Positions 43,129 through 51,682 of a stretch of 64,000 bases of DNA are shown piece after piece (position 1 is the stretch's first letter; every line of letters begins with the position of its first letter). Source of the stretch: SAR324 cluster bacterium JCVI-SC AAA005 (GTDB lineage: Bacteria > SAR324 > NAC60-12). Under the pieces are notes generated by a model, which did not search any database, was not told where the DNA came from, and saw nothing but the letters and a program-made list of their open reading frames with translations. Both the position numbers and the translations under genes were made by a program. Where the stretch lies: positions 12,508-76,507 of the forward strand of contig AGAU01000064.1 in assembly GCA_000224765.2 (NCBI GenBank), given 5' to 3'.

Positions 43129-44718
43129 TTAAATCTTAGAATCATTTGTATCGAGCATTTCCTCAAACTTCCGAGCCCGGACCTTCTTCACAATAAAATC
43201 AATATTCTTGATGGTCTTCCGAAGTTCCTCGTCTTTTTCAAGGCTTCCTTTTGCCTGAGTCATGCTTTGGATAATCACTCCTATGACTAGATTCAAAATT
43301 ACCAGACCGCTGACGATGATGAAGCTGATAAAATAGAATACAGCGGTCAATGGCATTTTTACAGGATTTGTACACAAACTTGGATTGTCCCCATAGCCAT
43401 ATTCGGCACAACTGTACATCTGAATGTACATTAGATCAGTCCAATCCTCAAATGTGGCAGCTCGGAATAAGGACACCATACTGATTGGGAGATTTCCAAA
43501 ATGGATTGGGTCATTTTCTGAAAAAATTGTGGTGCCAATCACCCCGTAAATATAAATCAAAAGTAACAGGAGAATTCCTACAAAGCCAATGGGTTTGGTA
43601 CTCTGAAGCAGTGAAATGACGATGATTCTTAATTGGGGAACTTGGCGGAAAATTCTTGTAAATCTGAGGAGTCTGATAACCCTGAGGATAAATGGATAAG
43701 ATCCAAAAGGAAGAAATGACCCAACCACAAGAAGGCTATCAAAAACATTCCATCCATCAGAAAAGAAAGCCAAGGGCTTATTCCATTTTGGTAGAAAGCG
43801 AATAAGAATTTCGACAAGAAAAATATACTTGATGACCGTGTTGATTGAATAGAACAAGATGGAATAGTCTTTTACCAAAGTTTCACTGGTTTCTAAACCT
43901 ACAACCACACCTGTCAAAATAATTAAAAGGTTGATGGAGTTTTGAAACCATGGGCTTTGCTCAATATTGCTCAGCCAACAAAGGGGGCTAGGTGCTGGTT
44001 GATTATACTCTATACCCGGCTCGACACCTAGATTCTCAAGCAACAACTTGTAAACGATTTTCTCCTCATCTGTGAATTCATCATCTGAGAAGATGATTTC
44101 TTCGACCATTGTTCGAATACTGATTTTTTGATGATCATCAATCTTGTTGAGTTTTCTGAGATCACCACCAACTTTCTGAATTTGGCTCTCCAGATCAAGG
44201 TCTTTGAGGTTCTGGTAAGCCTCATTATAATAAACTCGAATATCTGGACCCATGTACTTGATCCAGATCTCGGCAAATTCGTCGATGCTGGCGAAATCCG
44301 AGCAAGAAACATAATTTAGAACATTGAGGTACTCAAATAATTCGACACTTGGTTCAATTTCATAGGTATTAATTTGGAGCAGACTTTTGGCGAGATCATA
44401 GAATTTCCTCTCGGAGGAGAGGACTTCATCATCCGCAAAAATGATCTCCTCAAACATGAGAAGAATTTCTTTTTTTGCGGAATCTTCCTCCCCCTTCAAG
44501 CTAACTAAGCTTTCGCGAGTCAATTTGACTTTTTGACCATCGGTAAGATTGATAAGTTGTTGATTTGCCTGCTTTGAATACTCTTCGTAGCGTTCGCCAA
44601 GGTGCTTGGAGACAATCTTGTCAATTCTTTTTTCCGACTCATGATCTGACAATGAGATGACGTTCAACATCTTTAGACAGATAACTAGGTTCAGAGGATT
44701 TCGCAATCGATCAATCAT
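43129..44718 (-). CDS. BacNav-family voltage-gated cation channel with an N-terminal tandem TerB-like domain pair
   Basis: WNVFD in S3; S4 RVIRLLRFTRIFR; filter TFEDWTD; S6 LNLVIGVII; duplicated EEIIF(A/S)DDE...E motif. Confidence 0.85.
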   Translation of the reverse strand: MIDRLRNPLNLVICLKMLNVISLSDHESEKRIDKIVSKHLGERYEEYSKQANQQLINLTDGQKVKLTRESLVSLKGEEDSAKKEILLMFEEIIFADDEVLSSERKFYDLAKSLLQINTYEIEPSVELFEYLNVLNYVSCSDFASIDEFAEIWIKYMGPDIRVYYNEAYQNLKDLDLESQIQKVGGDLRKLNKIDDHQKISIRTMVEEIIFSDDEFTDEEKIVYKLLLENLGVEPGIEYNQPAPSPLCWLSNIEQSPWFQNSINLLIILTGVVVGLETSETLVKDYSILFYSINTVIKYIFLVEILIRFLPKWNKPLAFFSDGWNVFDSLLVVGSFLPFGSYPFILRVIRLLRFTRIFRQVPQLRIIVISLLQSTKPIGFVGILLLLLIYIYGVIGTTIFSENDPIHFGNLPISMVSLFRAATFEDWTDLMYIQMYSCAEYGYGDNPSLCTNPVKMPLTAVFYFISFIIVSGLVILNLVIGVIIQSMTQAKGSLEKDEELRKTIKNIDFIVKKVRARKFEEMLDTNDSKI

Positions 44719-44986: not shown

Positions 44987-45898
44987 TTAGTAATTCTTTA
45001 TGATCTCTTCATAATGATCGTTTTGTCTTAGGTTGCGGATCTTTTCAATATGTTCTGGCCCTATTTCACAGCATCCTCCAAGTATTTTTGCTCCCTTTGA
45101 AAGCCACTCCTGCGCAAATTCAGCATAAGTATGAGGGTTTATCTCCTGTCTAGACTTCAGTACGTCTACAGTGGCGTGACCTTGATAAGGTTCTACTGTT
45201 AAAAAACCGTTTGCATACGCTCCCATAGTTTTTACATGGGGAGCTAGTTCACTCAGGGCCTGCGTGGTTGTTTCAGGTGTAGAACAGTTGACCAACAAAG
45301 CACTTGCCCCCTCTGCAAGGACTGCCTGCGCGGCTTTAACAATGAGTTCACCAGACCGTAAAAATGAACCATCTTTTTCATTGACGGTAAAGGCAGTCCA
45401 GACGGGCAAGCCTGATTTCATAGCAACAGATGTACTAATACAGGCCTCTTCGATAGAAGCCATTGTCTCACACAAAAACAGGTCAACGTGTTTATACTGT
45501 TGCTCTAAGATCTGCTGATATTCTTGTTGAGATAATTGAGAACCTAAACGTTCGGATGGTCGGTAACTGCCTGGAAGAGGGGGAAGGCTACCTGCGATTA
45601 ACGTGGACAACCCCATATCATCACAAGCTTGTTTTGCTGCGTTAATGGCAGCCTTTTGCAGGGCTTCAAACTCATCTTGTCTGTTGTATTTAGCAAGTCG
45701 AGTTGGTGTGGCGGCGTAGGAACTGAGTGTAATTACGTCAGCACCGGCTTGGATGAAATCTTGGTGAACTTCTGCCACCAAGTCAGGATGGTCTCGCAAT
45801 ACATCGGCAGACCAAAGTGGTGTTAGTTTATGTTTAGCCCTTTTTACTAACTCCTGGCCCATGCCACCATCAAGAATTATAAACGAATTATTAAGCAT
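44987..45898 (-). CDS. Homocysteine S-methyltransferase family
   Basis: LDGGMGQEL, H.DFI.AGA, ETM, NCS and GGCC. Confidence 0.9.
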   Translation of the reverse strand: MLNNSFIILDGGMGQELVKRAKHKLTPLWSADVLRDHPDLVAEVHQDFIQAGADVITLSSYAATPTRLAKYNRQDEFEALQKAAINAAKQACDDMGLSTLIAGSLPPLPGSYRPSERLGSQLSQQEYQQILEQQYKHVDLFLCETMASIEEACISTSVAMKSGLPVWTAFTVNEKDGSFLRSGELIVKAAQAVLAEGASALLVNCSTPETTTQALSELAPHVKTMGAYANGFLTVEPYQGHATVDVLKSRQEINPHTYAEFAQEWLSKGAKILGGCCEIGPEHIEKIRNLRQNDHYEEIIKNY

Positions 45899-45934
45899 AT
45901 TTGTAAATCAGATTGCAACATAAAATCTACTGAC

Positions 45935-46618
45935 CTATTTGTCTGTACATTCTGGGTTAATGATTCCCAGGGTCGTCTTGACCCTGCAAAGTTGTTTACG
46001 GGAAAGATTTGCGTTTCTTAAAGTTGCTCGTGTTAGGTCTGTATCAATCAACTTAGCTCCACTTAAGTTAGCATTACTTAGGTCAGCTTCCGTGAAGTTA
46101 GAAAGAACCAGATTGGTCATGCTCAAGTTTGCATTTTTTAGAATCGCTCCCCGGGCGTTGGCCCTTTCCAACTTGGCCCCAATTAATTCTACTCCGAGTA
46201 GATTGGTACCTGTTAGATTTGCCGAACTCAGAACTGCACCGGTTAAATTTGCATTGCTTAATTTGGCCCCGCTTAAATCAGCACCTGTCAAATTGGCTTT
46301 TCTAAGATTTGCACCCACTAGATTTGCATTGCTCAAGTTTGCCCCGCTTAGGTCAACTCTACGTAAGTCAGCACCCACTAATGAGGCCTCCTTTAAAGTT
46401 GCTTGACGCAAACTGGATTTATTTAAATTTACTTTCCGTAAAGTTGCTCCACTGAGATTAGCCATATCAAGGTCGATACCATTTAGTTCAGCCTGACTGA
46501 GATCACATTTTTCACAATTGTTGAGCATCAAAAGCCACTCTAAATCCTTTTGTTCGAGAGCAAAAACCTGAAAACCCATAAGAGAAGCGACTACGGGAAG
46601 AATAATATGTCGTTTCAT
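45935..46618 (-). CDS. Exported pentapeptide repeat protein
   Basis: Signal peptide; CEKCDLS; long A(N/D)Lxx array; C-terminal Cys pair. Confidence 0.9.
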   Translation of the reverse strand: MKRHIILPVVASLMGFQVFALEQKDLEWLLMLNNCEKCDLSQAELNGIDLDMANLSGATLRKVNLNKSSLRQATLKEASLVGADLRRVDLSGANLSNANLVGANLRKANLTGADLSGAKLSNANLTGAVLSSANLTGTNLLGVELIGAKLERANARGAILKNANLSMTNLVLSNFTEADLSNANLSGAKLIDTDLTRATLRNANLSRKQLCRVKTTLGIINPECTDK

Positions 46619-50809: not shown

Positions 50810-51682
50810 TCAGTTTTCCACATTTTTTCCCCAGTAGAGCTTCCCAATTGCTGAAACATCAGCATTGACTCCAACGCCGCCGTGCTTTCCATCTGCCCCG
50901 AAAGATAGGATAACGTAGCGACTTCCATCACTTGAGTAATTGTAAGGATTCCCCCAGCCATCCGCGGGAATTTGTTGACTTCGAAAATAAGGCCCTTTCC
51001 AGTTCTCAACGTTGCTACCAAAAATTGGTTGCTGCAGGAGTGCACTCAAAGTTTGCTCCGTTGTTGGGAACCGGCTGTTGTGTGCTTCATATAAACTTAG
51101 GGCTGTTTCCAAATCTCTAAGTTGAGTTTTGGTAATTTGTATGGACTCAAACTGCACCTCGGGGCTCTCCCCCTCATTCTTAATCAGAGAAAACGCCTTT
51201 GAGGAACCTGCTAGATCAAAGACAGCCACATATTCAATTCCATCAGAATATTGTATCCCTACCGCTAAGGTCATAGAGTCTCTAACTTGTTTGATGAAAT
51301 TAAGATTGGATTCCAGGTTTTCCCCGATGACAAGGAAGGTCAAATTGGCTTTGGTAAAGGCGGTGCCTTTTGTATTTTCGATTTTTCCCTTATCAAAACG
51401 ATATCTTAATAGTTGTTCGAATCCATTCTTGCTAATGAAACGCTTCCAATCCACATAAATATCTCCATTATTCCTGATAATTAAAACGGGTTTTTTAACG
51501 GAGGTGTCTGGACCATCTTTAGCGGCCTTACTCACTGTTGAGATTTTTTCATCAGTAAATGGGTCTAGTCGCACACTGTGTTCCCAACCATTAGCCTGAT
51601 AATCGTTGACCTGAATTGAGTGGATTTGCCCAAAAGTTGGAAGGGGTAGAAGTACTAGGGCTAGTAGCAGAGAGAATTTCAT
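50810..51682 (-). CDS. Secreted fusion: VasI/TagO-like N-domain plus GspG pseudopilin globular domain
   Basis: Sec signal; DPFTDEK...YRFD...FDLAG; then ALSLY..HN.RFPTTEQ.L.AL, WKGPY, DGWGNPY and SFGADGKHGG.GVNADV. Confidence 0.75.
   Translation of the reverse strand: MKFSLLLALVLLPLPTFGQIHSIQVNDYQANGWEHSVRLDPFTDEKISTVSKAAKDGPDTSVKKPVLIIRNNGDIYVDWKRFISKNGFEQLLRYRFDKGKIENTKGTAFTKANLTFLVIGENLESNLNFIKQVRDSMTLAVGIQYSDGIEYVAVFDLAGSSKAFSLIKNEGESPEVQFESIQITKTQLRDLETALSLYEAHNSRFPTTEQTLSALLQQPIFGSNVENWKGPYFRSQQIPADGWGNPYNYSSDGSRYVILSFGADGKHGGVGVNADVSAIGKLYWGKNVEN

Follow-up and report, generated by a model that had tools for sequence, protein, structure and literature searches.

What does a bacterial voltage-gated cation channel gain from a long soluble stretch in front of its first membrane helix? 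This question is raised by a gene on the minus strand of the window, the whole 64,000-nucleotide stretch of SAR324 DNA analysed here, in which about 235 residues of repeated sequence precede a channel module. We know of no canonical BacNav with a cytoplasmic N-terminal regulatory domain and, among the characterised members of the bacterial Nav/Cav type, of none with a cytoplasmic regulatory domain of its own. The literature searched, in which subscription papers lay largely out of reach, yielded no description of the fusion analysed here, that of TerB-like domains to such a channel.

Gene organisation and channel module

The gene is divided into the following parts (x/33 gives the number of alignment rows that keep a residue):

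43129..44718, minus strand: whole gene, 529 aa; two TerB-like repeats, linker, predicted 6TM voltage-gated cation channel and C-terminal helix
44365..44718, minus strand: TerB-like repeat 1, aa 1-118, six helices
44410..44451, minus strand: acidic motif of repeat 1, EEIIFAD-x6-E, aa 90-103 (D96 and E103 33/33)
44017..44364, minus strand: TerB-like repeat 2, aa 119-234, strongly constrained and acidic (26 D/E against 11 K/R)
44062..44103, minus strand: acidic motif of repeat 2, EEIIFSD-x6-E, aa 206-219 (E206, D212 and E219 33/33)
43954..44016, minus strand: variable linker, aa 235-255 (low pLDDT, mean identity 38%)
43249..43953, minus strand: Ion_trans domain, aa 256-490, with S1-S4 (E276, F300, E303, W323-N324, D327) and the pore S5-P-S6 (N476)
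43645..43683, minus strand: S4 gating charges (R346, R349 and R352 33/33; R355, as R/K, 33/33; R358 24/33)
43435..43455, minus strand: TFEDWTD at aa 422-428, the selectivity filter; NavPp type (TLEDWTD) except for Phe at position 2
43372..43410, minus strand: C437/C449, an extracellular Cys pair behind the P2 helix (33/33)
43132..43248, minus strand: C-terminal helix, aa 491-529, with the family-specific signature T-x-K-N-I-D-x-I-V-K-x-I-R

Pfam Ion_trans (PF00520) was matched over aa 256-490 with an E-value of 2.8e-40 and 138.5 bits (cut-off 25), covering positions 2-237 of the 241 in the model. The counter-charges in S2 and S3, the Phe plug, the S6 Asn and the S4 arginines at every third residue are all kept, with F300 and E303 present in 33/33 and D327 in 32/33 rows of the 33-row alignment, and the channel is thus intact. 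Bacterial channel chains in the PDB match the channel part at E 1e-33 to 1e-25. The initial annotation had described a complete 6TM BacNav module behind about 235 residues made of two repeats, and an intact Ion_trans domain does follow two repeats at aa 1-234. Its BacNav label holds for the 6TM voltage-gated architecture but not for the canonical NavAb/NaChBac type, since the filter is of the NavPp/AnclNav type. The protein is, as predicted from these features, a voltage-gated cation channel of the NavPp or 'ancestor-like BacNav' filter type.

C437 and C449 are predicted to form a disulfide, and a Cys pair of this kind is also common among the nearest unfused channels in the matches listed. 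The C-terminal helix probably contributes to a four-helix bundle. Another Ion_trans gene of the same genome is present in three pieces with a stop (G000:C517:21639-22212, plus strand; L170-L172) and is probably broken or mis-assembled.

Two repeats ahead of the channel

The N-domain repeats with a period of 116 aa. Both motif pairs that had been quoted for it were recovered, LNVISLSD (aa 18-25) with EEIIFADDEVLSSE (aa 90-103) and LNYVSCSD (aa 134-141) with EEIIFSDDEFTDEE (aa 206-219). Local alignment of the two halves scored 113, compared to shuffled sequences that averaged 30 and reached 62 at most, and the family profiles of repeat 1 and repeat 2 matched each other with a probability of 98.6% (E 5.6e-16). 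With 0/5000 shuffles reaching the observed score and with this profile match, a chance repeat is ruled out.

AlphaFold2 modelled the N-domain from a 42-row alignment as two units of six helices each, placed at corresponding positions (pLDDT 87.7, pTM 0.80). Because of this pTM, the repeat pair is to be taken as one rigid unit in the model. The model of the full-length monomer reached a pTM of 0.45 with no confidence in the packing between domains, so that it does not fix the placement of the N-domain relative to the channel. When the N-domain was modelled together with four C-terminal helices and Ca2+, the complex scored 0.16 against a mark of 0.32, which speaks neither for nor against such an arrangement. 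No membrane-spanning stretch was found in the N-domain (best 19-residue hydropathy 1.23), and hydropathy gives no support to a signal peptide or an additional membrane helix there.

TerB-like fold of the repeats

In a structure search with VIA-align against 48,161 chains, 2H5N (PG1108) came out on top (rmsd 3.1, 110 aligned residues) with a Z-score of 10.6, which is lower than the caution level of the tool for helical bundles (about 13) yet 5 above the next row. That row had Z 5.6, and the Nostoc TerB protein 2OU3 was third with Z 5.1. A second structure comparison of the N-domain again returned 2H5N (Z 10.9). The top three PDB sequences for a profile made from 18 PF05099-matching domains were 2OU3, 2H5N and 2JXU; as the TerB profile picks both, 2H5N and 2OU3 count as members of the TerB family.

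Comparison of a 35-row repeat profile with a 32-row TerB profile gave a probability of 94.4% (score 45.9, E about 1e-7), set against at most 0.56% and a score of at most 13.7 for 30 column shuffles and 0.2% for the reversed control. The 18-row TerB profile was matched at 94.2% over 44 C-terminal columns only, and the signal between repeats and TerB lies mainly in the C-terminal half. In a reciprocal search within the phylum, the weak matches of the repeat profile included two Pfam TerB proteins (94.6 and 81 bits). These two were among eight reciprocal matches checked, of which one more had a faint TerB match and five had none.

Searches with single sequences gave little. The window protein has no TerB match at the PF05099 gathering cut-off of 24.4 bits, and single repeats matched Pfam TerB weakly in 6/35 cases (best E 0.0016). 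For aa 1-235, nothing exceeded the Pfam cut-off, the only match being DUF5856 at E 0.029, and no NCBIfam family was matched; a sequence search of the PDB with the N-domain was likewise without a match. The proposed Foldseek check returned 0 matches at E<=0.001 among PDB and viral structures. TerB-labelled clusters in the ESM Atlas matched the N-domain at 0.87, which we take as a lead only. Among 1.84 billion representatives, the repeat profile found 21 matches, and the five sequences retrieved were members or fragments of the fused family; free TerB proteins stayed below significance in this search.

The resemblance to TerB noted at the outset is supported by the structure match to 2H5N, the profile comparison (94%) and the reciprocal search, and by these three lines the repeats are TerB-like. 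It is very probable that the N-domain has the TerB fold and is fused to the channel.

Acidic motifs

Free TerB domains keep all four acids of two D-x6-E motifs (18/18). In the channel repeats, the EEIIF(A/S)D-x6-E motif corresponds to the second D/E pair of TerB, and this second D-x6-E motif is invariant in both repeats (D96/E103 and D212/E219, 33/33). It is preceded by a Glu-Glu, namely E90 (32/33) and E91 (E/D, 33/33) in repeat 1 and E206 (33/33) and E207 (32/33) in repeat 2. The first motif of repeat 1 is degenerate: D25 is kept in 24/33 rows and Ile, Phe or Leu takes the place of the Glu at +7. In repeat 2 this motif is one residue short, with D/E141 in 32/33 rows, E147 (+6) in 28/33 and Phe at +7. 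The initial annotation had likened both motifs of each repeat to the metal-binding helices of TerB, a likeness that stands for the second D-x6-E of each repeat but not for the degenerate first half (LNVISLSD/LNYVSCSD).

Since repeat 1 lacks the Glu of the first motif and that of repeat 2 comes early, the canonical TerB site may be partly lost. If this site requires both motifs, it would be altered in the channel repeats, and the extra glutamates ahead of the second motif might stand in for the lost acids. Repeat 2 also contains a conserved stretch outside the acidic motifs, with W152, K154, M156, G157, P158 and D159. Crystal structures of TerB domains presumably contain metal ions. Metal binding by TerB is presented in the accessible part of PMC4633105 as a bioinformatic proposal, and other papers, as far as their text could be seen, describe the function of TerB as unknown.

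Distribution and origin of the fusion

Among 71 related loci, 55 contain the full fused ORF, six are fused but partial and six run off the contig end. In three further loci, a break within the channel puts most of it into another frame than the N-domain, and one of the three has 71 ambiguous bases; we read them as errors or broken copies. Repeat 1 stands alone in one locus (L085), and a clean stand-alone tandem domain was found in none of the 71. An assembly chimera is ruled out by the complete fused ORF in 55/71 loci.

The N-domain was detected in 14/88 genomes of the phylum. Thirteen of these matches are strong, the own genome counted, and belong to one family with four genera; the remaining one is weak (E 7e-4) and lies elsewhere. 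Close homologues are named SAR324, Lambdaproteobacteria or Deltaproteobacteria in their sources, and one 1.9-kb contig with a family member comes from a bin labelled Nitrospina and may be mis-binned.

In a channel-domain tree of 56 rows, the 24 fused channels and one contig-cut fused locus form a single branch (support 100/99). All repeat-1 rows and all repeat-2 rows fall on separate branches of the repeat tree (SH-aLRT 97 and 93), which is consistent with one duplication preceding the spread of the family. The channel repeats group there with TerB-like domains that two FecR proteins of this bacterial family carry, a grouping that is partly circular, as these proteins were chosen by similarity.

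Two single sequences, P0011 and P0057, have the N-domain joined to apparent TrkH-type (PF02386) or ABC-permease (PF00528) tails. Their contigs are short and the junctions abrupt, and both are probably assembly chimeras.

Selection and expression

To estimate selection, dN was related to the gene-wide dS in 15 of the 17 gap-free genes (71 non-independent pairs), leaving out two with ambiguous bases or an unclean translation. The ratio was 0.022 for repeat 2 (95% codon bootstrap 0.009-0.039), 0.049 for the pore and 0.096 for the voltage sensor; the C-terminal helix had 0.016, and within repeat 1 the ratio was 0.102 for the first and 0.013 for the second half. In the deeper family, mean identity reaches 0.71 in repeat 2, 0.72 in the pore and 0.67 in the sensor; repeat 1 and the C-terminal helix each have 0.57. 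By these estimates, purifying selection acts on repeat 2 no less strongly than on the pore, and the TerB module is not a passenger. Comparison of the sequences and models shows that one ancestral event joined a duplicated domain of TerB fold to the N-terminus of the channel in a marine bacterial family, and that selection has kept both the TerB pair and the channel.

Parts of the gene are represented in RNA contigs from four runs in three studies, almost always with 95-100% identity; DNA carry-over is possible for these contigs. No contig bridging N-domain and channel was found in the four runs, and a promoter scan stayed at chance level (6 found, 9.9 expected).

Unfused relatives and filter classes

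A search with the channel part (proteins of 290-926 aa) gave 292 matches, of which 120 were listed. Among the matches listed, 83 lie outside the fused family; they are 291-337 aa long with a median leader of 5 residues, which supports the contrast to channels with short N-termini drawn in the initial annotation. None of these 83 nearest unfused channels among the matches listed has a match to the repeat profile, and 76 of them share the filter TLEDWTD. In the channel-domain tree, which was built without NavPp, CavMr, NavAb and NaChBac, the neighbours of the fused channels are TLEDWTD channels and the sole TLESW row is a long branch.

At filter position 4, all full loci have Asp (55/55). Six of the 24 fused rows read TFEGWTD and form a derived subclade (support 100/100). 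This subclade (P0039-P0043, P0074; L083) also shows a one-residue gap ahead of the filter, and the first TerB motif of its repeat 1 has decayed further. A small group (P0019, P0022, P0027, P0028) carries the filter TFDDWSY.

The accessible text of one study defines 'ancestor-like BacNavs' (AnclNav) by TLEDW or TLEGW filters (Shimomura et al. 2020, PMC7041947). It describes NavPp from Plesiocystis pacifica (TLEDWTD) as modestly Na+ selective with Ca2+ block (PCa/PNa 0.308), and the mutant NavPp-D4G as having gained Ca2+ selectivity (PMC7041947). By analogy with NavPp, modest Na+ selectivity and block by Ca2+ are predicted for channels with a TxEDWTD filter, and the TFEGWTD subclade is predicted to favour Ca2+. 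The fused family contains a natural Asp-to-Gly filter switch, tied to Ca2+ selectivity by the mutants in the accessible part of that work (PMC7041947), so that a Na+-type and a Ca2+-type filter can be set side by side on one scaffold.

Gene neighbourhood and other TerB proteins

No neighbouring gene is common to the family; the commonest one occurs in 25/71 loci, and neighbours differ between subgroups. Within the window, the neighbours of the channel gene are metabolic according to Pfam. Genes for a homocysteine S-methyltransferase and a pentapeptide-repeat protein lie upstream (window 44987-46618, minus strand) and recur in 25 and 20 of the 71 loci, mostly those of the closest relatives. Partners of the ter operon, Shango or Bunzi type were not found by PADLOC (0 families at E<=0.01). 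A 290-aa ORF at 50810-51682 of the window (minus strand) combines a T2SS protein G domain (aa 181-277) with about 180 preceding residues that have no Pfam match.

Of the 88 genomes of the phylum, 82 have PF05099 matches, as many as 26 in a single genome; in the own genome, 13 matches at E<=1 fall on 9 ORFs. One of its proteins is a K+ channel-TerB fusion of 846 aa (L173:2435-4972, plus strand, identical to G000:C269:5434-7971), which comprises a two-helix pore (TVGFG), RCK/TrkA_N domains, Sel1 and a C-terminal TerB domain above the Pfam cut-off. Relatives of this K+ channel occur in 39/88 genomes, of which 24 extend from pore to TerB in one match and 7 contain the pore-RCK part only. A 569-aa protein with a C-terminal TerB domain matching PF05099 (L178:3751-5460, minus strand) reads like an MFS transporter. 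Two FecR-domain proteins (L118:1872-3605, plus strand; L122:208-3342, minus strand), one of them with leucine-rich repeats, carry an N-terminal TerB-like domain and, outside the channels, belong to the proteins that match the repeat most closely. In addition, a family of about 265 aa (L016:1507-2304, minus strand; L120, L123, L125) has a TerB-like D-x6-E motif at its end, three of the four members scanned lacking a significant Pfam match, and a 511-aa protein (L175:1605-3137, minus strand, identical to G000:C455:22104-23636) has an N-terminal TerB-like domain and a weak C-terminal DUF2225/TPR match.

Possible role of the TerB pair

Channels of the 6TM type are homotetramers with a cytoplasmic N-terminus, and eight TerB-like domains would therefore lie under the voltage sensors, around the C-terminal helix bundle. 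We propose that the TerB pair acts as a rigid cytoplasmic regulatory module beneath the voltage sensors. A divalent cation (Ca2+, Mg2+, Mn2+ or Zn2+) would bind to each repeat at its invariant EE-x4-D-x6-E cluster and so alter the packing of repeat 2 on the channel, either on the S1/S4-S5 face or on the C-terminal bundle. This change in packing would shift voltage dependence or inactivation and thereby provide feedback from the cytoplasmic ion level to the channel. Some regulatory role of the pair is likely, and the addition of TerB to two unrelated cation channels in this lineage fits such a role. A divalent cation as its input is suggested with more reserve. The reading as a whole, in which the cytoplasmic pair binds the cation and acts on gating by way of the conserved repeat-2 face, is our tentative preference, with both the ligand and the effect on gating being putative. 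The Ca2+- or metal-sensing module that the initial annotation had assumed to regulate gating is likewise a proposal.

The main rival takes the TerB pair as a docking module for protein interaction or membrane surveillance. A partner protein would control the channel, the acids would be structural, and the channel would be tied into a lineage-wide network of TerB-bearing proteins. We regard this as rather unlikely, although the abundance of PF05099 in the phylum, the conserved non-acidic stretch of repeat 2 (W152-D159) and the accessible literature, which has TerB as membrane-associated and TerC as a partner, all speak for it. Since TerB is also found on a transporter and on FecR proteins, a general docking module fits the family's range, which extends from FecR/LRR proteins, an MFS-like transporter and a DUF2225-like protein to the K+ channel; and because the phylum fuses TerB to so many unrelated proteins, fusion to a channel need not imply channel-specific sensing. 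Against docking, no partner gene travels with the channel, and the D-x6-E acids are as invariant in both repeats as in free TerB domains. The invariant loop acids would be left unexplained if the pair merely helped folding, tetramer formation or localisation without sensing, similar to the T1 domain of Kv channels. Such an assembly or stability module is unlikely, all the more as the 83 nearest unfused relatives among the matches listed have leaders of about 5 residues and no such domain; the packing of the repeats as one rigid unit, the decay of the first acidic motif and a highly constrained C-terminal helix that differs from that of unfused relatives would agree with it.

The signal could also run in the opposite direction, with voltage or ion flow as input and the TerB pair as output to cytoplasmic partners, sensing Ca2+ that enters through the pore. 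The derived subclade with the Ca2+-favouring Gly at filter position 4 (6/24 fused rows, 100/100) and the Ca2+ selectivity gained by NavPp-D4G in the accessible part of PMC7041947 would suit this direction, which is nevertheless very unlikely, given the NavPp-type Asp in most members (55/55 full loci) and neighbours among which no output partner is evident.

A wider form of the preferred reading would have voltage and a cytoplasmic divalent cation gate a Nav/Cav-type channel together through the TerB pair, the channel being one node of a lineage-wide TerB sensor system. This is doubtful. If true, the fused channel would have a bacterial equivalent to the feedback that calmodulin exerts on the Nav/Cav channels of animals, and TerB domains on the K+ channel, the transporter and the FecR-type proteins would represent a common metal/Ca2+ sensor coordinating ion flux in SAR324. 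The fused channel itself is real, lineage-restricted and directly testable. With a TerB pair on a voltage-gated channel, the current becomes a direct readout for TerB function, with and without the four acids, and recordings could show what TerB domains sense.

Comparison with known systems

The fused channel shares the single-domain 6TM architecture with NavPp and CavMr, and its filter TFEDWTD differs from the TLEDWTD given for NavPp in the accessible text at position 2 only. With CavMr of Meiothermus ruber (TLEGWVD, from the same partial source), one fused subclade shares Gly at position 4. In contrast to this group, a 234-aa tandem TerB-like N-domain replaces the leader of about 5 residues found in the nearest unfused relatives among the matches listed, the filter has Phe at position 2, and the C-terminal helix is conserved and of the family's own kind. 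NavAb, NaChBac and their relatives share the S1-S6 architecture. Their filter is TLESW, unlike the filter class of the fused channel.

With TerB (PF05099; 2OU3, 2H5N, 2JXU), which is also known from tellurite-resistance operons, DjlA and the Shango and Bunzi defence proteins, the repeats share an all-helical fold of about 115 aa and the invariant second D-x6-E. They differ from it in the degenerate first motif, the added Glu-Glu and single-repeat scores under the Pfam cut-off, and they stand in tandem on a voltage-gated channel whose gene neighbourhood contains no ter operon or defence match. A soluble module beneath the pore that tunes gating is familiar from the RCK rings of MthK and BK, from CNBD channels, from the PAS domain of EAG and from the T1 domain of Kv channels. 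The fused channel stands apart from these through its TerB fold, its N-terminal placement and its pore of the Nav/Cav type.
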